The position numbers were made by a program, and so were the translations under genes. Below, one piece after another: positions 44,134 to 55,234 of a stretch of DNA of 64,000 nucleotides. The notes under the pieces are model-generated. The model was not told the origin of the DNA, did no database searches, and saw nothing but the letters and a program-made list of their open reading frames with translations. The stretch comes from Rubripirellula sp. (GTDB lineage Bacteria > Planctomycetota > Planctomycetia > Pirellulales > Pirellulaceae). Position 1 is the stretch's first letter. Each line of letters opens with the position of its first letter. Location of the stretch: the NCBI GenBank assembly GCA_965216875.1, contig OZ244207.1:192001-256000 (forward strand). Reading direction: 5' to 3'.

Positions 44134-44982
44134 GTAGGCCGGATCAAGGAGCGACAGCGACACAGATCCGGCACGCTGAGCAGACGGCGCTAGCCGAGGG
44201 CCCAACGCTCAATCTTCCGCAATCGTTGTAGGCCGGATCAAGGAGCGACAGCGACACAGATCCGGCACGCTCCACCGAAGACTAAGCCAGAAGGTGGACG
44301 AGTGCCAATGAGCCGCGACCGCGTAAGCGGCCGGGCCCTGTCCACTCTTTCGTGGCCAATCTCTTTTCCCAACGTTCGCCACACTCCTGAGCCGACGGCG
44401 CTAGCCGCGGGCCCTACGCTCAATCTTCCGCAATCGTTGTAGGCCGGATCAAGGAGCGACAGCGACACAGATCCGGCACGCTCCACCGAAGACTAAACCA
44501 GAAGGTGGACGAGTGCCAATGAGCCGCGAACGCGTAAGCGGCCAGGCCCTGTCCACTCTTTCGTGGCCAATCTCTTTTCCTAACGTTCGCCACACTCCTG
44601 AGCCGACGGCGCTAGCCGCGGGCCCTGCCCTCAATCTTCCGCAATCGTTGTAGGCCGGATCAAGGAGCGACAGCGACACAGATCCGGCACGCTCCACCGA
44701 AGACTAAACCAGAAGGTGGACGAGTGCCAATGAGCCGCGACCGCGTAAGCGGCCGGGCCCTGTCCACTCTTTCGTGGCCAATCTCTTTTCCTAACGTTCG
44801 CCACACTCCTGAGCCGACGGCGCTAGCCGCGGGCCCTACGCTCAATCTTCCGCAATCGTTGTAGGCCGGATTAAGGAGCGACAGCGACACAGATCCGGCA
44901 CGCTCCACCGAAGACTAAACCAGAAGTTGGACGAGTGCCAATGAGCCGCGAATGCGTAAGCGGCCGGGCCCCATCCACTCTT
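44134..44982 (+). repeat. Tandem 211-bp mosaic of REP-like palindromes (BIME-like)
   Basis: GTAGGCCGGATC-N19-GATCCGGC at 44134, 44228, 44439, 44650 and 44861 (period 211 after the first; last copy has GGATT). Each unit also carries TGAGCCGCGACCGCGTAAGCGGCCGGGCCC and TGAGCCGACGGCGCTAGCCGCGGGCCC. Confidence 0.95.
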
Positions 44983-45094
44983 TGTGTCTTCTCGTGTTTT
45001 TCGTGGCCCATCTTCCCACAAGAACCTCAGCACCATTCGTCCAATTCGATCGATTCGTGGTTCGTCATTGTCAAAAAGCACAACAAGTTCAGCG
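44958..45094 (+). repeat. Dispersed repeat, copy 1 (homologous to 51250-51437)
   Basis: Shared blocks AAGCGGCCGGGCCC, TTTGTGTCTTCT, TTTTTCGTGGC, GTCCAATTCGATCGATTCGTGGTTCGTC, GCACAACAAGTTCAGCG. Confidence 0.85.
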
Positions 45095-45175
45095 CGAAAA
45101 TCCTTAAACATTTCTTGTTGTGTTGTTCGTGCCCAATCATTCAACAAGAAGAGTGATCCCTGCGCGATCCAAAAT

Positions 45176-45204
45176 TTGACAACCCAAATGTCAACGGCGA
45201 GAAT
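45176..45204 (+). promoter_or_regulatory. Candidate sigma70 promoter for the cassette array (Pc-like)
   Basis: TTGACA (45176-45181), 17 nt, GAGAAT (45199-45204), pointing into the array. Confidence 0.5.
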
Positions 45205-45231
45205 GCCCCCGAAGTGGTTGCCACCTAACCG

Positions 45232-45368
45232 GTGAGAATGCTGGGGCGACCAGTGAGAATACGAGGATCAACGCGCGCGTCACCAACCGTACCGAAGGTC
45301 CACTCAGTGAGAATAACCAGCACGACGTATTCTCACCTGTCCAACAGCTGATAAATAAGTTATTTGGA
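45232..45368 (+). other. Putative attI-like primary recombination site
   Basis: GTTATTTGGA (45359-45368) is the exact reverse complement of TCCAAATAAC opening attC1 but is not preceded by an attC hairpin. GTGAGAAT at 45232, 45253 and 45307, inverted at 45329. Confidence 0.7.
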
Positions 45369-45377
45369 CTAACCTCC

Positions 45378-45990
45378 TTGCGAGTGCGCTTCTCAATCAC
45401 TGCTTTGCTCGTGTTGCCTATCGCGGCAGCATTCACGTACGCGTTGTGGTTACGCCTTGCTAATTGGGGACCGCCTGAGAGGAAGACATGCATTGCACAC
45501 GAACACTCCGTCGGACTGGTGCGGGGTTTTGATACTCAAGATTGGGGCCACCACGACGTTGAGCCGGGACAGGGCACTTATCTCACAGGGCACTTATCTC
45601 TATGTTCGAATCTACGGATTGCTGAGCACGACAACGGACAGCACTTCCTATTTGGATTTGGGACTCCAACTTCCCGCGAACGTTGAAGCCGGACAAACGT
45701 TTACCTGTACGCCAGCTAAACGCGCACGCGCAGTATCCGAAGTCGATGTTAACGGCGACTCACTATCGAAACTCACGGAAGGGGAATTCGCTATATTCGG
45801 GTATGCGTACCCGCGTACCGGTTGGTTAGTTTCAGGTTCGAAGGTGACGGCCAGAGTCGCGATCGAACGCATTTCGCGAAAACGGATGTATGCCCAAATC
45901 CAACTTGCTGGTCAATTTGCCCCCGATCTCGGTCCACTTAATATTGATCGGACATTGGTTTTTGATCGCGACCTGGCGAATTCCAAATAA
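45378..45990 (+). pseudogene. Cassette 1: exported hypothetical protein frameshifted by a 16-bp duplication
   Basis: ACAGGGCACTTATCTC at 45569-45584 and 45585-45600. Removing one copy joins ORFs 45378..45686 and 45457..45990 (...EPGQGTYLYVRIYG...). Confidence 0.8.
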
Positions 45991-46073
45991 CCAAGCCATG
46001 AACCGGAGATCGCCATAGCGCGATTGCTGATGGCAACCACATTGGGCGATCCCGGTTATGGCCAACGTTCGCC
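45985..46073 (+). other. attC-like site 1
   Basis: AAATAAC caa GCCATGAACCGG...CCGGTTATGGC caac GTTCGCC. Confidence 0.85.
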
Positions 46074-46098
46074 AACACAAAGCCTCAAACTGCGATTG

Positions 46099-46548
46099 AT
46101 GACCGAACATCGATTGTCGACACAAGATGTGCTCGATTTCTTCCGCGAGTTGCCTCAACACCGTGGTTGTTCGGTAGACGAACTTGACGCCGTTGAGAAT
46201 CAGCTAGCGGTATCACTACCGCAGTTATATCGCGACATGATGCTGCTTGACGCATATCGCCTCTACAACACTGAAATCTTCGTCCCTGTTTCCGAATTGC
46301 ACGAGTGGACACGGACTGCACCCGACGACTTCCATCGCGGTACGATCTGGACACTCTCTCCGAGTGACGTGATCTTTGCGGTTGCCCCCGGTGCAGAGGA
46401 CAACTACTACTTTTCCGCAGACGGGACTGACGACCCGCCGGTGTACGGCTTGTCCCTGAATACAAGCAATCCTTCGACGCCGAATGTTGTCGCTGATACA
46501 CTATCCTTCTTCACTGCTGAGATTCTCAGGTCGTCCCTGAGACTCTAG
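46099..46548 (+). CDS. Cassette 2: SMI1/KNR4 (SUKH) family immunity-like protein
   Basis: GCSVDELDAVENQLAVSLPQLYRDMM...YYF...DDPPVY. First ATG after attC1. Confidence 0.75.
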   Translation: MTEHRLSTQDVLDFFRELPQHRGCSVDELDAVENQLAVSLPQLYRDMMLLDAYRLYNTEIFVPVSELHEWTRTAPDDFHRGTIWTLSPSDVIFAVAPGAEDNYYFSADGTDDPPVYGLSLNTSNPSTPNVVADTLSFFTAEILRSSLRL

Positions 46549-46560
46549 CGTTACTGAACT

Positions 46561-46653
46561 GGCGAACCATGAAATGCACGGGAGGACGGGAGTCGCGTTT
46601 TTTAGTCTGCTTGCAAGCCTTTCGCCCGTCCCCCGTGATTTCTTTCGTTCGCC
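46561..46653 (+). other. attC-like site 2
   Basis: GGCGAAC cat GAAATGCACGGG...CCCGTGATTTC tttc GTTCGCC. Confidence 0.88.
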
Positions 46654-46659
46654 GATGCA

Positions 46660-47196
46660 ATGAACAACTCCTTTTCATTTGTCGTCGTGTTCGGATTACT
46701 CGCATTTGTGTCCGGCTGCAGCGACGCGTCGAGAACCGACGAGCAATACCTTGCTGACTGGCGGAACGCCGAATCTAAAAGCAACGTTTTGCATGAGGGT
46801 GGCACCTGGCATTTCGAATTTGTGTCTGTTCGCCTGTACCGCCACAACTGGGATAACCAATATATCGAATTTCCAATCCTATCGGCGGGGAAGCTAAGTG
46901 AAACCCGTGAACCGAAGGAAGGGATCTTGCTGAGTCCTAGTCAGGTCGACCGCCTAGAAGCAGCAGTAACCGGATCCCACGCAGACACTGGAATCGCATT
47001 GTGCCATTTTCCACATCACGGATTTGTCTTTTTCGACGCTGATGGCGTTCCTGTCGGTAGCGTGGATGTCTGTTTTCTTTGCGGAAACGTTAGGACCATG
47101 CCCGAAGGGTATGCAGAGAGTTGTGATCTGCTCTCTCTTGCTGAGTTGATACATGAAGCCGGTGTTCCACTTCGCAACCCAGAGTGGAAGCACTAG
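46660..47196 (+). CDS. Cassette 3: hypothetical lipoprotein
   Basis: Lipobox FVSGC; C-terminal CHFPHHG...VCFLC. Confidence 0.7.
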   Translation: MNNSFSFVVVFGLLAFVSGCSDASRTDEQYLADWRNAESKSNVLHEGGTWHFEFVSVRLYRHNWDNQYIEFPILSAGKLSETREPKEGILLSPSQVDRLEAAVTGSHADTGIALCHFPHHGFVFFDADGVPVGSVDVCFLCGNVRTMPEGYAESCDLLSLAELIHEAGVPLRNPEWKH

Positions 47197-47197
47197 C

Positions 47198-47287
47198 GGC
47201 GAACCATGGCGTGCACACGAAGCACGGCATAAGATGTTTACAAATGGAAACCGCATGGGCCGTCCCCGGTGACGGCTAACGTTCTGC
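47198..47287 (+). other. attC-like site 3
   Basis: GGCGAAC catgg CGTGCAC...GTGACG gctaac GTTCTGC. Confidence 0.8.
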
Positions 47288-47297
47288 CAATGGAGAT

Positions 47298-47744
47298 TTG
47301 CGTTTGACGCTGAGCCCTGAATCGAAGCGCGACCTTGCAATTGCCGCTGGGGGGATCCTCGCAACGACTTTCTTCGTTTCGTCAAACGGTAACGGACAGA
47401 ATCCGTTCACGGTTCTCCTTGGGATGCTGATTGTCTCCGCGATCGTCTCTGCCATATCTATTCTGCTGTCAAGGCTCGTGCCCACATTAACATTGGCTAT
47501 CGTTGCGAGTATTGTCATTTCGGAACTGGTTTTCCTGCTCTATTTCATGTACAGCGTAGCATCGCGTGGGCATTCAGACCCTCATCTGGCAGAAGCGTTT
47601 TTGCTCCTTCCGATCGTTTTTGCGATCGTGACTTCACCGCTCATCGCGTTGACCGCGTATGGTATAGGACGGATCGCCAATCGCTACTTTTATTCGCATG
47701 ACACAACTTCTGATCTTTCCGATCAGAAAACACCGGCGATGTGA
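47298..47744 (+). CDS. Cassette 4: multi-pass membrane protein
   Basis: GGAG RBS before TTG and about 4 hydrophobic helices. Confidence 0.7.
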   Translation: MRLTLSPESKRDLAIAAGGILATTFFVSSNGNGQNPFTVLLGMLIVSAIVSAISILLSRLVPTLTLAIVASIVISELVFLLYFMYSVASRGHSDPHLAEAFLLLPIVFAIVTSPLIALTAYGIGRIANRYFYSHDTTSDLSDQKTPAM

Positions 47745-47746
47745 AG

Positions 47747-47837
47747 GCAGAACAATGACATGCCCCGAAGGACGCGAGCCAAGCGGTTTGGCAATGGTGA
47801 ATCTTTCTCGCGTCCTCGGTGATGTCCGCCGTTCTGC
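47747..47837 (+). other. attC-like site 4
   Basis: GCAGAAC aat GACATGCCCCGAAGGACGCGAG...CTCGCGTCCTCGGTGATGTC cgcc GTTCTGC. Confidence 0.88.
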
Positions 47838-47844
47838 GACAAGA

Positions 47845-48330
47845 ATGAATCTCACTGTTGCTGCCTTCTTCCTTGCTGCAGTTGGATGCAGCAATCGTAC
47901 AACAACGACGCCCCAAGAGAACGCCTTTGATCCGGCTGCCTATAGACCCGAGATTAGACCGTTTCTACTCCAACTCGACTCATTGGTCGGAAAGTACAAC
48001 TCAGAGGCGCGCGGAATCGAACTCAGTGAGCACGGAGTCGATGGACACCTGAATGATGCTGAAGCCCGTAGATTAGCCGATTTCGCAAATGCGATTATCG
48101 ACGACTTGAACAACCGTTTTGATAGGCCTGTCGCCCGCACGATCGGTGATACTTGGTATCAAGTTCCTTCGCGATTCAACATCACGGAAGCCGAACCACA
48201 TGACGGCATTTCAAGAACGTTCACTGTTTCTCACCTCAATTGCGGCCTTCATGAGTACGATTTCGTCGTTGACGAGGGCCTGGGCATCGTTGTTGCAGAT
48301 CGCTACGACAGCCTGGGCATCAACTGGTAA
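47845..48330 (+). CDS. Cassette 5: hypothetical lipoprotein
   Basis: MNLTVAAFFLAAVGC lipobox at the first ATG after attC4. Confidence 0.7.
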   Translation: MNLTVAAFFLAAVGCSNRTTTTPQENAFDPAAYRPEIRPFLLQLDSLVGKYNSEARGIELSEHGVDGHLNDAEARRLADFANAIIDDLNNRFDRPVARTIGDTWYQVPSRFNITEAEPHDGISRTFTVSHLNCGLHEYDFVVDEGLGIVVADRYDSLGINW

Positions 48331-48335
48331 GGTGC

Positions 48336-48426
48336 GCAGAACGATGCGAAAATACGGAGCGGCGGTGGAGCGATTGTTTCCAATGGTTGGTCAACTCCCG
48401 CCGACCGCACATCGCTACCGTTATGC
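48336..48426 (+). other. attC-like site 5
   Basis: GCAGAAC gat GCGA...CGGCGG...CCGCCG...TCGC tacc GTTATGC. Confidence 0.8.
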
Positions 48427-48435
48427 ATCAAGACA

Positions 48436-48934
48436 ATGGAACTTCGTCCCCAACTTGAGCCTCCGAAGATCGACGAGCAGCTTGCTGCCCGACTCGCAGA
48501 GCTTGCTGCGGACATTGACGGTGCGCGACCCGGCGAATGGGACGAATGGCTGGCTGAATTCAATCAGCTCGCGAATACTTCGATTCCGTTTGAGCACTTC
48601 CAAGGAATCTACGGTGGCGAAGAACATATCGAATGGGTGCGCCGAATATTGCACGATCAACACTCAAAACCTGTTGATGACGTCACGCGTGACGAACTAA
48701 TCGAAATTGTCCGACGTGCCATGCCTCAGAACGGATATTTGGAAGCCGAGGCATACATGGCGGTACTCGACAAAAAATGTCCCGCGATCTGGGGCGTCAA
48801 ACTTGATCTTTTATCCGCCTGACTACGACGACGCCACGAACACTTGGGACGGTGGCCGCATGATGGGTGAATACGATCCCACACCAGAGCAAATCGTGGA
48901 TTGGGCGTTGCAAACTGATTCAAATGATGCATAA
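48436..48934 (+). pseudogene. Cassette 6: bacteriocin (colicin-type) immunity-like protein, frameshifted in an A6 run
   Basis: TRDELIEIVRR in ORF 48436..48822 and NVPRSGASNLIFYP...PTPEQIVDWAL in frame 48707..48934. A5 instead of A6 at 48772-48777 joins them. The stop falls in the attC6 core. Confidence 0.7.
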
Positions 48935-49019
48935 CAAAAAAATGCACCCGAGTCGCGAAGTCGGGCGTATTGACAATTGAGAATCTCTCGTCGCGACCGG
49001 GTGATCTTAGACGTTCTGT
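48929..49019 (+). other. attC-like site 6
   Basis: GCATAAC...ATGCACCCGAGTCGCGA...TCGCGACCGGGTGAT...GTTCTGT. Confidence 0.88.
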
Positions 49020-49022
49020 GAA

Positions 49023-49652
49023 ATGGAGTCTTCGCCCAACGTGACTGCAGGCAAAATCACAATCGCCGTTGTCGTGCTCGGCTTCGCAGTGCTTTATTGC
49101 GAATGGCTAGCGACGATTGTTCCTCCCGAGCATTGGGCATACGGCTTCTGCGTCAATTTTGTATTCCTGGCAGCGTTCACGGCCGTACTCACAACGCTTG
49201 AACTTCCAATCCTCCCAAGCTCGTACTTCACACCTAAATCATTTGAGCGCGAGGGCCGGATCTATCGCTGGACGGGCATCCAGCCATTTCTAGCTTTCTT
49301 GCGGCTTATCGGTTGGGAGCGATTTTGGCGAAAAGCAATTCCGGTCAGGACTGACGTTGCCTCGCTTCGCAAGTACTCTCAATCTACGCGCGGCTCCGAA
49401 GCAGTGCACCTGGTCGCTGCGATCTTTACAGCATTGTTTACGATGACGGTCGCAGTTCGACACTCGTTCGTAGGTACAGGATGGCTGTGGGGATTCAACG
49501 TTCTGGCGAACGCCTACCCAGTGATGCTTCAACGCTATAATCGTCCGCGGGTTGATCGACTACTTCGCCGCCTCGAACGAAAATGCGGTCAGGACAGCAC
49601 AGAACAAAGCGATCGACACGGAGCCGCCGACGGCGCTTTTACAAAAGGATGA
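49023..49652 (+). CDS. Cassette 7: CrtO-like (glycosyl-diaponeurosporenoate acyltransferase-like) membrane protein
   Basis: [39 protein letters not shown] ends inside attC7. Confidence 0.65.
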
Positions 49653-49688
49653 TCGATTGCGGCGGCCCGGTCATCGCAAGCGTTCTGT
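49599..49688 (+). other. attC-like site 7
   Basis: ACAGAAC aaa GCGATCGAC...GCCGCCG...CGGCGGC...GTCATCGC aagc GTTCTGT. Confidence 0.85.
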
Positions 49689-49701
49689 GGCTAAGACGAA
49701 C

Positions 49702-50298
49702 ATGCCGAAACAACTCCCGTCTTGGGTCATCGAACAATCTCTCAACTGGCAGCTCTTCGAATGTTGCGGTGACCAAGACCTGTTTCCGTTTCGCTGTCAC
49801 CAATGCCAACACATTTACGTGCTCTGCTACGAGTGCGACACCCTATACACCGATTTGACGGATCTCTCGCAGCGCCACGCTCCTTTGTGGGACAACTATT
49901 CCTGCACAAATTGCCCCGCCAACTTCGACGACGACTTCATGCGTTCGCCACGGCATCGCATTCCATACACCGACTGGAACAACGCAAACCTGCATCAATT
50001 GCTGGTGGATTGCCCGTTTGAAGACTTGATGCGAATGCTCACAACCTTGAGCGACCAGATTGCGGATCACCTGCGCCGCGGCATGCGCAGCACGGCTGGA
50101 CGTGCGATGACCGAATACCGAAATTTGGCCGAATCAATTATGGTTCACGTGGCGGACGCGGACGATGCCCGTGCAGATGGTTACGATTTGACGGATCCCA
50201 AGGCACTTGCAAACGCGATGGCCTGGCACGACGAACTCCCCAACAAACCAAGCCGCAACTACGCGTTGCTGGGAATCACTGACAGGCTCTTCGCGTAA
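49702..50298 (+). CDS. Cassette 8: Cys-rich putative zinc-binding protein
   Basis: ECC, CHQC, CYEC and CTNC motifs. First ATG after attC7. Confidence 0.65.
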   Translation: MPKQLPSWVIEQSLNWQLFECCGDQDLFPFRCHQCQHIYVLCYECDTLYTDLTDLSQRHAPLWDNYSCTNCPANFDDDFMRSPRHRIPYTDWNNANLHQLLVDCPFEDLMRMLTTLSDQIADHLRRGMRSTAGRAMTEYRNLAESIMVHVADADDARADGYDLTDPKALANAMAWHDELPNKPSRNYALLGITDRLFA

Positions 50299-50308
50299 AA
50301 AAGACGCC

Positions 50309-50399
50309 ACAGAACCATGCGATGAACGGAAGTCGCGGAGTCGTCGTTTTTGACCAATGAAAATCGATCGCCGCGACTCGGTTCTCGCGTCCGTTCCGC
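50309..50399 (+). other. attC-like site 8
   Basis: ACAGAAC cat GCGATGAACGGAAGTCGCGG...CCGCGACTCGGTTCTCGC gtcc GTTCCGC. Confidence 0.88.
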
Positions 50400-50426
50400 T
50401 TGTTATTAGACGATCCAACTCTGCCA

Positions 50427-50711
50427 ATGTCGATGAAAGCAGCATCCACACATCTGACCGCTGGAGTTTTTCTGACTCTGCTGACGGGTTGCGCGTTGTT
50501 CAGCGAACCTAAAATGGAATTCCCGCGTGGAAGCCCCATTTCGCACGATCAGATCCCTGAGGCGTTACGACTGAAGCTTGACCTTCCACTTAATGCATCG
50601 GTGGAACGATTCGGCGATGACCCGGATACGGCGTCGTATAGGATTGAGCAGCCTAATGGCAGTGTCCGATACATCGGATCAAATGGAGAGCCTCAAGGCG
50701 GTATCATGTAG
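50427..50711 (+). CDS. Cassette 9: small lipoprotein
   Basis: Lipobox LLTGC. Start 50427 or 50433. Confidence 0.65.
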   Translation: MSMKAASTHLTAGVFLTLLTGCALFSEPKMEFPRGSPISHDQIPEALRLKLDLPLNASVERFGDDPDTASYRIEQPNGSVRYIGSNGEPQGGIM

Positions 50712-50718
50712 AGGGAAG

Positions 50719-50809
50719 GCGGAACCATGCGATGAACCGAAGTCGCGGGGTCACCGTTTTGGACAATGGAAAATCAATCGCCGCGACTCGGTTATCGCGA
50801 CCGTTCTGT
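50719..50809 (+). other. attC-like site 9
   Basis: GCGGAAC cat GCGATgAACCGAaGTCGCGG...CCGCGACTCGGTTATCGC gacc GTTCTGT, with two unpaired extra bases in the left arm. Confidence 0.9.
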
Positions 50810-50836
50810 TGCAAGAGCTAATGAAACCAAACTGAC

Positions 50837-51187
50837 ATGATTCGACCCGATGACTTTGAGATTGAAATTGGCCACAACGATCGAGGCACATTCGTTCGCG
50901 TAAAACACAAGCCAACCAACAACGAACGTCTTCAGGAATCTGTACCGGAAAATGAGATTGGGCGTCGTCGCGAATCAATGATCACCGAACTCCGCGGGCT
51001 ATTGTTCGGACCCAAGGATGTCGTTTTCGACACGGGAAGATCTGTAGGCGGTGACTTCATTCGTGTTCGCCACTTGCCGACGGGAATGGAGCGTTCCGCT
51101 ATGCGTCGCGAAAGCACGCACGAAAATCTGCTGGATGCTGTGCTCGAGGACGTGTATTCGGATAGGCTCCGAGAGGATGCAACCTAA
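50837..51187 (+). CDS. Cassette 10: small protein with two release-factor-like VRxxHxPT repeats
   Basis: FVRVKHKPT and FIRVRHLPTG, no GGQ. Confidence 0.6.
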   Translation: MIRPDDFEIEIGHNDRGTFVRVKHKPTNNERLQESVPENEIGRRRESMITELRGLLFGPKDVVFDTGRSVGGDFIRVRHLPTGMERSAMRRESTHENLLDAVLEDVYSDRLREDAT

Positions 51188-51228
51188 CTGGCGTTGCCCT
51201 TTAGCCGGCCACCGCCAACGAAGAAGCA

Positions 51229-51255
51229 ACAGAATCATGACATGAACCGAAGCGG
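51229..51255 (+). other. attC-like site 10 (left half only, disrupted)
   Basis: GCAACAGAAT catgacATGAACCGAAGCGG runs straight into the dispersed repeat. Its core matches the GTTCTGTTGC ending attC9. Confidence 0.7.
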
Positions 51256-51437
51256 CCGGGCCCTATCCACTTTTTGTGTCTTCTTGCGTTTTTCGTGGCT
51301 CATCATCCCAAAAGAATCTCAGCACGAGTGCTCGCGCAACAGTTCGCCATTTGTCCAATTCGATCGATTCGTGGTTCGTCTTTGTCGCCTGGATGAGGCA
51401 GCCACAAGAAACACGAAAAGGCACAACAAGTTCAGCG
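51250..51437 (+). repeat. Dispersed repeat, copy 2, with imperfect inverted repeats (MITE/REP-like)
   Basis: Homologous to 44958-45094; TTGTGTCTTCTTGCGTTTTTCGTGGCT ... AGCCACAAGAAACACGAAAAGGCACAA. Confidence 0.8.
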
Positions 51438-51469
51438 ATTGCCGATTGCTGCCCAAGGGAGTTCCCCCG

Positions 51470-51560
51470 CGACAACCATGTGATGTTGACGGAGCGGCGG
51501 TGGTCGCCGCTCACAAATGGAAAACAAATCACCGCCGCACGCACATCGCTACCGTTCGCC
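51470..51560 (+). other. attC-like site 11
   Basis: CGACAAC cat GTGATGT...GCGGCGGTG...CACCGCCGC...ACATCGC tacc GTTCGCC. Confidence 0.85.
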
Positions 51561-51578
51561 GAAGATGCAAATAGCACT

Positions 51579-52028
51579 ATGACGGATCACGAAATCGATA
51601 AACTTATCACTGAATTTCAGACGAAGCATCCCTCGATCATGGATGGGGCTCACGTCCGACGAGATCCCGTACATACCATTGAGCGTCTTGCCGAAATCGA
51701 GCGGGAGCACGGGGTCGTACTTCCAGCGCAATACAAACGCCATCTGTGCAAGCACGGCGCCGGAGATTTCGGGCACACGTGGATCTACGCTCCCGAAGGC
51801 AAAGAGGGGGCGGGGTTGTGGGAGGATTACTACTACATGCCTCAGCACAAGGGACGCTTCCTACCAATTTCCGATAACGGCTGCGGCGATCACTACGGAT
51901 TTCGCATTGTCGATAATGTCTGCGCGGACTTCATCTGCTTTGCCGACCACGAACAGGATTACGAGTTGTCCGATGCTGTCTATCCAGACTTCAATACGTT
52001 TATCGCAGAGGTTGGGCTATCCAGCTGA
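51579..52028 (+). CDS. Cassette 12: SMI1/KNR4 (SUKH) family immunity-like protein
   Basis: IERLAEIEREHGVVLPAQYKRHL...G, FLPISDNGCGDHYGF, DHE, DFNTFI. Confidence 0.82.
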   Translation: MTDHEIDKLITEFQTKHPSIMDGAHVRRDPVHTIERLAEIEREHGVVLPAQYKRHLCKHGAGDFGHTWIYAPEGKEGAGLWEDYYYMPQHKGRFLPISDNGCGDHYGFRIVDNVCADFICFADHEQDYELSDAVYPDFNTFIAEVGLSS

Positions 52029-52045
52029 TTTGCGATTCACACAAC

Positions 52046-52140
52046 GGACAACAACGCGTTGCACCAGAGTAAGGGCGTCTGACATAATCGAGATTCCGGT
52101 CGCAATGAACTCCCTTGCCCGGTGAACGCCATCGTTATCC
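52046..52140 (+). other. attC-like site 12
   Basis: GGACAAC aac GCGTTGCACC...AAGGG...CCCTT...GGTGAACGC catc GTTATCC. Confidence 0.82.
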
Positions 52141-52170
52141 GAACTCGCAACCAGGCCGACTGATCCGTAC

Positions 52171-52584
52171 ATGTTTGAATTTCACGGCTGGGCGTCAATT
52201 CACTATCACGTCTACGAGATTGATGAGCGGAAGCAGGATTCGCTTTGGCGTGATTTGACCGACTACGTCGCTTCAAACTGCTCACGTTTCGCGACACTCA
52301 CGCGCTACAACGGATGCGATTCGTGTCACACCGCTGGTCAGCGCAACCATCGCACCTCCCACCCCTTTGAGCTGTTTGAGTGGATTGCACTTCACGCACC
52401 CGGTTCATACGGACTGCTCTATGTTCGCGACGATGAGGATGACATGCGTGGCTCGGACTTCACCAATTGCTTTCGGGCGTGGCGACTCTGCAGAGGGATA
52501 TTTGCTGAACTCGACGATCCCTTTCTCTCACCTGCGATACCCGTCGTGGAAGACCCCACCGATCTCGATCGTGACGATTTTTGA
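52171..52584 (+). CDS. Cassette 13: Imm7-like polymorphic-toxin immunity protein
   Basis: MFEFHGWASI...G.RNH...APGSYGLLYVRDDED...DPFLSPAIPVVED. Confidence 0.78.
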   Translation: MFEFHGWASIHYHVYEIDERKQDSLWRDLTDYVASNCSRFATLTRYNGCDSCHTAGQRNHRTSHPFELFEWIALHAPGSYGLLYVRDDEDDMRGSDFTNCFRAWRLCRGIFAELDDPFLSPAIPVVEDPTDLDRDDF

Positions 52585-52587
52585 TTC

Positions 52588-52678
52588 GGATCACCATCCA
52601 ATGCACCCGAGCGGCGAAGTCGGGCATTTTGACAATGGACATTGACTCGTCGCCGCCGGGTGATTGTTGCCGTTCGCC
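52588..52678 (+). other. attC-like site 13
   Basis: GGATCAC catc CAATGCACCCGAGCGGCGA...TCGCCGCCGGGTGATTG ttgcc GTTCGCC. Confidence 0.85.
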
Positions 52679-52731
52679 GACTTACCGAGTGATGGCAACC
52701 TCTCGATTCAACTGCAACTCCTTCTGAACCA

Positions 52732-53094
52732 ATGCCGGACGATGTGATTGCGACCATCAAGCGTTTCATCACTGACTACCGCCGCGGTAGCCATACGAGC
52801 TTGGAACTTGTTGATGTCACCTTCCAAACGCTCGTCGACAACGATGCATCCGACGAGCTCGTCAATGAGGTTCTGTTTCTGATGCCTGATAGCGTGATTT
52901 CCGCGTTCGAACAACGGATGGGCGAGATGGTGGAAACTGCGTTCTTTATTCCAAACAAACGCCTCGGTGACCACCGATCGGACGACGAAGTCCGTCGTGA
53001 TGCTTTCGCGCGTCAACCGATACTCCGGCGAATTCATCACGCATTCTTACGTCCGTTACTGCTACGTCGTTATCGTCTCGAACATGGATGGTGA
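52732..53094 (+). CDS. Cassette 14: hypothetical protein
   Basis: 120-aa ORF between attC13 and attC14. Confidence 0.55.
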   Translation: MPDDVIATIKRFITDYRRGSHTSLELVDVTFQTLVDNDASDELVNEVLFLMPDSVISAFEQRMGEMVETAFFIPNKRLGDHRSDDEVRRDAFARQPILRRIHHAFLRPLLLRRYRLEHGW

Positions 53095-53174
53095 CCTGGC
53101 AACATTTGCCGTGGCTGTGGCACACCGATACGATGGAAAGTGTTGAGCAATGGAAGACCAACCCCGCTGCAGGC

Positions 53175-53263
53175 GGCGAATCATCGCGTGCACACGAAGG
53201 CCTGTTGGTTCGTTTGCTCAAATGGAAAGTCAACTCACGAGCCTCGGTGACGGGGCGTTCATC
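53175..53263 (+). other. attC-like site 14
   Basis: GGCGAAT catcg CGTGCAC.CGAAGGC...GCCTCGGTGACG gggc GTTCATC. Confidence 0.8.
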
Positions 53264-53278
53264 GAATGAGAACAGGCC

Positions 53279-53857
53279 TTGGCAGATGCAATAGAAAATC
53301 GATTCAGGCCGCGTTACAGCTTGCTTCTGTTTTGCCTTGTCTGTTTACTGATCTCAATGCTTGTCGCCTACACTGGAGTCTTGAGGCAGATCACTCCTCC
53401 GGCACATGAATTTGTTGGCTTTCCAGCCGATGCGCCACGCCAAGACGGTTTCATCGCTCCGGGACAGCTAACGCATGTTGTCAAGCAAGATGTTTTCGCT
53501 CCAAATGGATTTGATGTGCGTCTGACAGTTCGCATTCAGCTGAACCATGATCGCGTTTTTTCACATTCCATCGACGGATGCCTAATGGAAATCGAGCATG
53601 TCAGCTATAGCCTTTACGACAGCCTGTCGGTCGGTGATCCGACGTTCGTGGAGGAGTTTGTCGCGGGTGAGCTCACGCGATTCAATGGCACGTCGGCTGT
53701 CCGATCCGTTGAGCTGTTAGACTTTAAGACACTTCCAGCACCGGGAACGAACTCCGGTGGCTCGGCAAACTCCATGGTCATCGATGAACCATCCGATGCA
53801 CCGAAGGACCGAACGTCGCGTTCTGAAGATGGAAAATCAATCGCCGGTCCTCGGTGA
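53279..53857 (+). CDS. Cassette 15: membrane-anchored hypothetical protein
   Basis: RFRPRYSLLLFCLVCLLISMLVAY N-terminal anchor. ORF reads through most of attC15. Confidence 0.6.
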   Translation: MADAIENRFRPRYSLLLFCLVCLLISMLVAYTGVLRQITPPAHEFVGFPADAPRQDGFIAPGQLTHVVKQDVFAPNGFDVRLTVRIQLNHDRVFSHSIDGCLMEIEHVSYSLYDSLSVGDPTFVEEFVAGELTRFNGTSAVRSVELLDFKTLPAPGTNSGGSANSMVIDEPSDAPKDRTSRSEDGKSIAGPR

Positions 53858-53872
53858 TCGCGTGCGTTACCC
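53783..53872 (+). other. attC-like site 15
   Basis: GATGAAC catc CGATGCACCGAAGGACCG...CGGTCCTCGGTGATCG cgtgc GTTACCC. Confidence 0.88.
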
Positions 53873-53883
53873 ATGGTGAGATT

Positions 53884-54207
53884 TTGTTGAGACTCTTGAT
53901 TCTTCTTGCAGTTCCGCTTTGTGTGTTGGGGTGTACGACGGTCAGATCCCCCAAATTCAAGGTTGATACTCGCGACGAGATGCATCATGCAATCGTTGAT
54001 GCGATACCTACGGGGACCTCAGTCAAGCATGCGACGGAAATCATGGAATCCGCTGGTTTTGACTGCGTTTTCATCGAGTCAGGAAGTTTTTCTGAGGACG
54101 CAGGGATCATTGGCGATGAACGCGACTACCCATTCGTAAAAGACGCACGATTTCTTAAGTGCACGCGCATAGACAGCACAGGAATGTTGACGTCAAATAG
54201 TTGGTGA
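53884..54207 (+). CDS. Cassette 16: lipoprotein, probably 3'-truncated (no attC follows)
   Basis: LLRLLILLAVPLCVLGC lipobox. Ends 46 bp before the convergent gene with no attC. Confidence 0.55.
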   Translation: MLRLLILLAVPLCVLGCTTVRSPKFKVDTRDEMHHAIVDAIPTGTSVKHATEIMESAGFDCVFIESGSFSEDAGIIGDERDYPFVKDARFLKCTRIDSTGMLTSNSW

Positions 54208-54253
54208 GCGTAGCTGGCTACGGGAGGAGGTTTGGTGCGTGCAAGCACACACC

Positions 54254-55234
54254 CTACTTTCTGATGACGGGGGCCAGGTAGATATCTCGGTACTTCACGT
54301 TCGTGTGATCACCTTGCAGATGAATGGGCCCTGGTTGGGTTGGGTCGGTGAAGACGGCACCACCGGTTGGCCCAGGAACCGGTTGATTGTCGATCACTTT
54401 TTCGCCGTTTAAGACAACGGTGACGTGGCGATCAACCAGCGTCAAATCGTAGGTCTGCCACTGCCCGCCTGCGCGGCCTGCATTTTTCGACGGTGGGATG
54501 CTGCCGAAAATCGCGCCGACCCCTTGGATGCCCTGCATCCGACTGTCGCGATCAACCACTTGCGCTTCATACATGCCGCGTAGGTAGACGCCACTGTTGC
54601 GATCTTTTTCGACCAGGAATTCGATGTGCAACCAGAAGTCTTCAAAGACCGCTTCGGTGCGAAGATTCGCGTACGCGCCGGTCGCGCTGAAGTCGGTCTT
54701 GGGTGTCGTGTTCACAAGCTGGCCGTCTTTCACGCTCCAGCCGTTGATCTTATCGGACTCGTGCGGCCGCCAGCCTGTCAGGTCTTTGCCGTTGAAAAGC
54801 GAAATGGGATGCCCGAACCGAACCTTCGATAGATCGGGAGGTGTTGACGGCATCGGTGGGATCTTTTTTCCCTTCAGCCGATCCCGTTTCACCGTTCCAT
54901 CTGGCGAAACCGCTTTGATTTCTCCGACGAGTGCTCCATCGACAAGCATCACTTGTACTGTTTTGGTGTCTTTCTGCTTTCGGTTTTGGCGAAGCGTGAA
55001 GGACAACTGTCCTTGCGAATGCTTGACGTCTTGATGAGGTCCGTCGGGCCCGACGTGCAATCGCATTTTGACAACCGGGGCGCCATCGGATTCCGTGATG
55101 CTTAACCATGCTGGCGTGCCCGATTCCAAAGTGATAGACCAATCGCCAATCAGGTCGTCTGCCGATGCGGACAGTCCGAACGAACAAGCAAGCAGGACGC
55201 AACCAAGGACGTTTCGAATGGGCAAGTGATTCAT
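54254..55234 (-). CDS. DUF1080 (3-keto-disaccharide hydrolase-like) protein
   Basis: SLFNGKDLTGW, NSGVYLRGMYEAQV, WQTYDL, LQGDH. Confidence 0.9.
   Translation of the reverse strand: MNHLPIRNVLGCVLLACSFGLSASADDLIGDWSITLESGTPAWLSITESDGAPVVKMRLHVGPDGPHQDVKHSQGQLSFTLRQNRKQKDTKTVQVMLVDGALVGEIKAVSPDGTVKRDRLKGKKIPPMPSTPPDLSKVRFGHPISLFNGKDLTGWRPHESDKINGWSVKDGQLVNTTPKTDFSATGAYANLRTEAVFEDFWLHIEFLVEKDRNSGVYLRGMYEAQVVDRDSRMQGIQGVGAIFGSIPPSKNAGRAGGQWQTYDLTLVDRHVTVVLNGEKVIDNQPVPGPTGGAVFTDPTQPGPIHLQGDHTNVKYRDIYLAPVIRK

Follow-up and report, generated by a model that had tools for sequence, protein, structure and literature searches.

The cassette array of the window

The 64,000-nucleotide stretch analysed here (the window; positions 192,001 to 256,000 of contig OZ244207.1 from a Rubripirellula sp. 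genome, G000) carries a genuine integron cassette array with 14 complete attC sites and one half-site, all on the plus strand between 45985 and 53872. It is termed array A, and three further arrays of the same genome are termed B, C (the complete integron) and D. A sequence-only reading of this DNA had counted 15 attC-like sites; 14 of these are complete, site 10 consists of a left arm only, and the first GTT of the array (45359), which had been taken as part of an attC, belongs instead to an attI crossover. The same reading had described palindromic sites of 89-95 bp with short co-oriented open reading frames (ORFs), and this description holds: the lengths are as given, the ORFs lie on the plus strand and an ORF spans at least 80% of the unit in 11 of 14 cassette units.

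In cassette 1 (45360-46067) a 16-bp tandem duplication (45569-45600), on which short-read contigs concur with the assembly, splits the ORF, and the cassette has a distant paralogue in the complete integron. It is followed by cassette 2 (46068-46647), which encodes an SMI1/KNR4 protein. The sites attC1 (45985-46073), attC2 (46561-46653), attC3 (47198-47287, preceded by an ORF at 46660-47196), attC4 (47747-47837, preceded by an ORF at 47298-47744) and attC5 (48336-48426, with the preceding ORF ending at 48330) lead to attC6 (48929-49019), whose ORF apparently lies in two frames (48436-48822 and 48707-48934). A CrtO-family acyltransferase ORF starting at 49023 precedes attC7 (49599-49688), and attC8 (50309-50399) and attC9 (50719-50809) follow. 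At site 10 (51229-51256, with AAT at 51233) the left arm has merged, via a common AAGCGGCC, with a repeat-plus-palindrome element (51250-51437), which displaces what would remain of attC10, along with most of the cassette after it; the two are joined over 8 common bases. The left core of attC11 (51470-51560) has no upstream partner (1/5 match), so that the chain of cores is interrupted once. Further on lie attC12 (52046-52140, preceded by a second SMI1/KNR4 ORF), attC13 (52588-52678, core CAC, preceded by an Imm7 ORF at 52171-52584), attC14 (53175-53263, core AAT) and attC15 (53783-53872). The last cassette (53867-54207) has no attC and stops at a REP-like (repetitive extragenic palindrome-like) repeat near 54230-54257. 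Every complete site is matched by an attC model, which was trained on the window's own sites and whose scores on them therefore carry no proof. An Rfam scan of the window returned one tRNA and no match on the array, and a blind AAC..GTT folding scan for defining sites was dropped as too noisy.

The integron integrase IntI recombines the folded bottom strand of attC with double-stranded attI at G/TT, and the array shows the scar expected of such crossovers. All 13 core pairs listed in the sequence-only reading are present, and the five positions after each GTT are the reverse complement of the core of the next site at 67 of 70 positions over 14 junctions. None of 200,000 permutations reached this value (mean 34.9, maximum 57), and a same-site comparison gave just 33/70, with one coordinate mis-set in that comparison. 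The match from attC11 to attC12 is indeed weaker (3/5). Core complementarity in the circular form is found throughout array A, the exceptions being the two variant cores (CAC and AAT) and the half-site. Chaining and hairpin covariation together support the G/TT logic.

Within the hairpins, 89.9% of cells are paired and double-sided changes occur in 16 of 20 pairs (0/500 shuffles), with slid-partner controls giving 28-45% paired. The sites show the architecture of attC, that is, a long imperfect hairpin with an L box, extrahelical bases and an unpaired central spacer. Folding of the bottom strands as attC hairpins was borne out in part: as linear sequences 8 of 14 reached z ≤ -2 and the other six gave weaker values, and among sites circularised in silico 11 of 13 formed a single long hairpin closed by the R box, with one closing the R box and misfolding inside and one run with a mis-set start. 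The first unpaired base, which is C in the textbook attC, is mostly G on the top strand (59/68), and the second is an invariant A on top, or T on the bottom strand, in 14 of 14 sites.

As had been proposed, the cores deviate from GTTRRRY: none of the 15 R' cores fits and 11 start with GTTC. Genome-wide only 1 of 81 attC fits, and GTT alone is conserved, the lineage form of R' being GTT(C/A)(T/G/C)(C/G)(C/T). The sites of the complete integron deviate likewise, which makes the deviation a mark of the lineage and not of non-membership. The attC model was also scored on 14 related genomes, picked mainly for completeness, and was positive in 14 of 14 among the matches listed. This agrees with the proposal of a lineage-specific attC family; the family is not new, since taxon-specific attC families, including a Planctomycetes model, have been published (Ghaly et al., 2021, PMC8352920). 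That model describes lineage-conserved attC sequence and structure in the phylum, a trait that the window sites would share. IntegronFinder, too, already detects integrons in Planctomycetes (PMC4889954).

With regard to cassette content, Pfam names 4 of 15 cassette proteins above cut-off, and PADLOC and NCBIfam gave no match among the 15. Toxin-immunity-type families occur in three cassettes (SMI1/KNR4 at 46102-46548 and 51579-52028, Imm7 at 52171-52584) of an array without a partner toxin. Two cassette proteins were searched in 200 relatives, where one had no match and the other had one (52%, G091); the homologue in G091 has no attC match within 1.5 kb.

An attI copy at the head and four platforms in the genome

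Three other heads in the genome, one adjoining intI, share 88-91% identity with the head of array A (45170-45361, plus strand); over the stretch between intI and the first cassette of C the identity is 88%. On the strength of this homology the head is predicted to contain attI. The crossover G/TT lies at 45359/45360, and the first cassette chains to it at 10 of 10 positions. The head also holds four copies of G(T/C)GAGAAT and one inverted ATTCTCAC, repeats that are likely accessory IntI sites. A candidate cassette promoter (Pc), TTGACA-17-GAGAAT at 45176-45204 on the plus strand, is present in all four heads and rests on a 10/12 consensus match, of which 0.5 would be expected by chance. The DNA of head A found no match in 30 relatives, which indicates that attI sequences are lineage-specific. 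As for the synteny of an empty insertion site, the two genes that flank the array have their matches (52-56%) on separate contigs in each of the two genus relatives.

The genome, a single contig of 8.26 Mb, yields six matches to tyrosine recombinases, and among them is one integron integrase. This sole IntI scores 414 bits against TIGR02249 (cut-off 265), contains no stops and lies 1.57 Mb from the window; the next tblastn matches to it in the genome are partial recombinases (32-34%) and a 47-codon remnant. Its closest named relatives (57-66%) are from Stieleria, Roseiconus and Rubripirellula, by which the genome would fall among Pirellulaceae-like planctomycetes. The protein (L012:9968-11539; G000:C1 about 1,814,967-1,816,538) has some 120 extra N-terminal residues ahead of the integrase model, with a weak SAM-like match at 50-97, an extension common to the Stieleria and Roseiconus relatives; it might serve to contact the motif repeats in the long attI.

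The gene belongs to complete integron C (G000:C1 1.79-1.82 Mb), which comprises intI, attI and 37 attC sites. Altogether four attI heads were found, each followed by an array (A with 14 attC, B with 7, C with 37 and D with 23), and of 83 model matches genome-wide, 81 fall inside these arrays. Since the only IntI is so distant, array A has no adjacent intI, and it falls under the definition of an attC cluster that has no integron integrase (CALIN: at least two attC and no intI nearby), not under that of a complete integron. Head D retains 143 bp of the 5' end of intI and is accompanied by an ATT core and decayed sites in its array; by its sequence it appears to be an intermediate deletion stage. 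Heads A and B have a common junction devoid of intI DNA, differ at 17 of 197 positions and are grouped together by three of four informative sites. The series from C through D to A and B suggests duplication of the platform followed by deletion of intI.

Repeats surround these platforms. Upstream of array A lies a cluster of four 211-bp units and five 44-nt copies together with a palindromic repeat (44134-45100), presumably of REP type by resemblance, with related repeats on the flanks of the other three platforms as well. The 211-bp unit, with its four copies at 44134-45108, is composed of REP-like parts that match 299 clusters genome-wide; the units were considered as empty cassettes and rejected, as they gave no attC model match. 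The element merged with attC10 also has a copy upstream of the attI heads, and the distal part of array A may stem from another platform, as a remnant that became fused. None of the three Y1_Tnp genes in the genome is near any array, which leaves a repeat-driven spread of platforms unsupported. In arrays C, B and D there are short cassettes without a clear ORF (291, 250 and 237 bp), with two attC sites just 103 bp apart, and the complete integron contains an internally duplicated 457-bp cassette (positions 3 and 23).

Cassette traffic within the genome and within relatives

From the crossover onwards, cassette 2 of array A and the cassette at position 2 of the complete integron agree at 580 of 580 bases, and the neighbours differ at the two loci. 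A cassette has thus moved as a unit bounded at G/TT. Its depth in the short-read contigs is about twofold, which argues against an assembly artefact. Heads A and C differ at 25 of 198 positions (12.6%), a rate at which 73 differences would be expected over cassette 2, and the copy must therefore be far younger than the split of the heads. The public short reads were available as contigs, in which rare variants are lost, and low-share runs were set aside; two contig joints (45361-46066 and 47837-50310) were considered as excision products and rejected, being of full depth with unknown letters between and fitting other arrays of the same genome.

Arrays A and B have no cassette in common. Over the first nine junctions of A the cores agree at 63 of 63 positions, and in the tenth they agree at 6 of 7, that is, one mismatch over ten junctions, where roughly six would be expected if A had stood frozen after its separation from B. 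Descent of A and B from one intI-less head, the lack of a common cassette and the near-intact proximal cores together favour, if indirectly, A as a recipient of cassettes.

Relatives of a Pirellulaceae-like kind show the same layout, including duplicated cassettes within an integrase-less array. IntI was found above cut-off in 79 of 151 family genomes, the present one included. Arrays were compared from 9 of the 14 scored relatives, with intI-less arrays from eight and the integron alone from G117. Shared heads were found by BLAST in five of the eight (G073, G012, G135, G059 and G002) and by eye only in G037 and G068; none was resolved in G033, and none could be placed for two of the six G135 satellites and several G002 clusters.

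The clearest case is G073, which has one IntI and, 0.55 Mb away, an intI-less array of 46 attC whose 115-bp head is 94.8% identical to that of the integron. Four cassettes of this satellite are twinned with the integron. Within the satellite itself, cassettes 3 and 20 and cassettes 10 and 17 are identical at 100% and cassettes 9 and 21 at 99.8%, and these duplicates require insertion into the intI-less array. In G037, integron cassettes 130 and 131 recur as satellite cassettes 4 and 3, a circular permutation.

Ten cross-array twin events lie at a mean relative position of 0.14 in satellites, near attI, versus 0.39 in integrons; the satellite value was reached in 2 of 200,000 draws under a uniform null. 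Events were counted at 99% identity or above among genomes that are kin, with adjacent pairs counted once and the nearer of the G073 cassettes 10 and 17 used, and one 98.7% twin at position 8 of 14 falls below the threshold.

A probable satellite array and alternative explanations

Array A is probably a satellite attI array served in trans by the distant IntI, and likely a recipient of cassettes as well as a donor. In the mechanism proposed, the platform of repeats, intI and attI would have been duplicated into new repeat clusters, the extra intI copies would have been deleted with attI and the candidate Pc retained, and the satellites would have continued to receive cassettes after intI was lost. 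The single IntI, acting from 1.57 Mb away, would likely excise the cassettes of A and insert new ones at its attI. The wider proposal, to which we incline by a little over even confidence, is that planctomycetes of the Pirellulaceae type harbour an integron network in which one integrase serves several dispersed platforms of attI and promoter that are kept as active recipients, so that several cassette sets are both expressed and reshuffled side by side, and satellite integrons in working order make up many of the arrays now filed as CALIN relics.

A number of observations weigh against this reading. Cassette 2 is the sole twin among the 14 cassettes of A, and there is none in B (0/7) or D (0/23). 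Cassette 2 may have been copied in either direction, and transfer with A as donor only explains it; the intact proximal sites of A would equally make better donors. The grouping of A with B rests on four sites and could stem from gene conversion. The broken ORFs of cassettes 1 and 6 and the destroyed site 10 are indicative of decay in progress. Among the relatives, the complete genome G012 has six attI-headed arrays (L038-L043) and no IntI match, and in G037 and G117 a stop interrupts intI, from which it follows that attI heads can outlast any integrase. Identical twins lie far apart within the integron of G037 itself, indicating that turnover is faster than mutation and that identity dates events poorly. 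The G068 satellite has no cassette in common at 99%, and a distant recombinase gene (28%) is found in one of the G135 satellites.

Several of these points would fit an array A that is a relic, derived from a duplicated integron that lost intI and with it all uptake, from which the distant IntI merely excises cassettes and from which cassette 2 was copied into C. This account is possible but doubtful. It matches the published view of CALINs (PMC4889954, PMC9024848), and the state of D with its intI remnant, ATT core and decayed sites, the broken ORFs and single twin of A, and the G012 heads without any IntI are all in line with it. However, a common intI-less junction in A and B without a common cassette, the undecayed proximal cores of A and the duplicates inside the intI-less array of G073 are at odds with an end to uptake. 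GC skew, moreover, appears to orient C and B in the way described as prone to excision, and A and D in the way described as stable (PMC11023631), and it would then be C, not A, that is disposed to excision.

It is improbable that until very recently each array had an integrase of its own, for instance through whole integrons acquired from close relatives, with sharing of cassettes before the loss, or that cassettes were copied by homologous recombination between similar attC sites. Several family members do carry 2-6 IntI matches, and partial intI genes adjoin arrays in G059 and G002; A and B, however, hold no intI DNA. As to homologous copying, each twin is a single cassette delimited at G/TT and set among different neighbours, and circular permutation is seen in one pair, which points to site-specific circles and not to gene conversion. 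Growth of the array from a cassette at a secondary site (attG), which does yield integrase-less cassettes (bioRxiv 10.1101/2022.09.11.507474), is largely refuted by a head that reproduces the site beside intI over 190 bp and is no GWT site, and ordinary REP or MITE (miniature inverted-repeat transposable element) palindromes, for all the repeats that flank and interrupt array A, would not account for attC-specific chaining and covariation or for model matches confined to four arrays; either origin is very remote.

A satellite served in trans is related to several known systems. CALINs have many attC and no intI nearby, half of them with IntI elsewhere in the genome, and excision from a CALIN with reinsertion at the attI of an integron has already been proposed, a process hard to tell from loss of intI (PMC4889954). 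Array A is alike in its many attC, its lack of an adjacent intI and the presence of IntI elsewhere; it differs in retaining attI and the candidate Pc and in its signs of cassette uptake. CALINs have also been described as degraded integrons, and outside class 1 attI escapes detection by IntegronFinder (Neron et al., 2022, PMC9024848), with the consequence that heads such as that of A go unseen. With sedentary chromosomal integrons, namely the genome's own complete integron and those of the Vibrio type, array A has in common a homogeneous attC family, co-oriented cassettes mostly of unknown function, decay away from attI and the same attI, whereas it has no adjacent intI and is one of four platforms instead of a single one. 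Single attC sites lacking an integron integrase (SALINs) and insertions at attG likewise involve an IntI acting off its own locus (Loot et al., bioRxiv 10.1101/2022.09.11.507474), but attG, a short GWT motif, does not resemble attI, and the target in array A is a full attI copy. Mobilisation of cassettes in trans has been described (PMC9668308; bioRxiv 2025.06.18.660453), and bioRxiv 2025.06.06.657839 and PMC2426708 offer further comparison. The literature search found nothing on attI-bearing integrase-less arrays as recipients, nor on Pirellulaceae integrons, in the texts it covered; supplements, which lay outside the search, may tabulate the arrays of this genome.

The kind of array is thus known and its lineage-specific attC family published; what sets array A apart is the architecture of one integrase and several attI platforms with signs of satellite uptake. 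Of more interest than the attC family itself are the head with its attI copy, the lone integrase far from it and the cassette in common with the complete integron. Integrase-less arrays outnumber complete integrons and are mostly taken as relics or donors, partly because attI is undetectable outside class 1. Comparison of array heads within one genome makes attI readable, and cassette twins offer a way to test by computation which arrays take up cassettes. Should satellites be active, a cell would have several expressed first positions per integrase, and the origin of CALINs would have a testable route through platform duplication, intI deletion and service in trans. The non-canonical cores, in turn, broaden the known range of natural IntI substrates.

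Some further features of the relatives were recorded. The integron of G037 (L050-L054) has about 147 attC, and 570-bp cassettes form a large, diverged family in it (86-100% alike); G073 has a similar 534-bp cassette family. The heads of G012 resemble the attI of the G117 integron. In G002 (L033, L036), single cassettes stand behind a common palindromic sequence ending GCAATTC/GTT, unlike attI heads; this sequence may be a secondary site that recurs. Several arrays (G135 L057/L064, G012 L039/L040) open with a 1.5-kb cassette that starts GTTGCACTGGCC, and in one of them it occurs twice in tandem.

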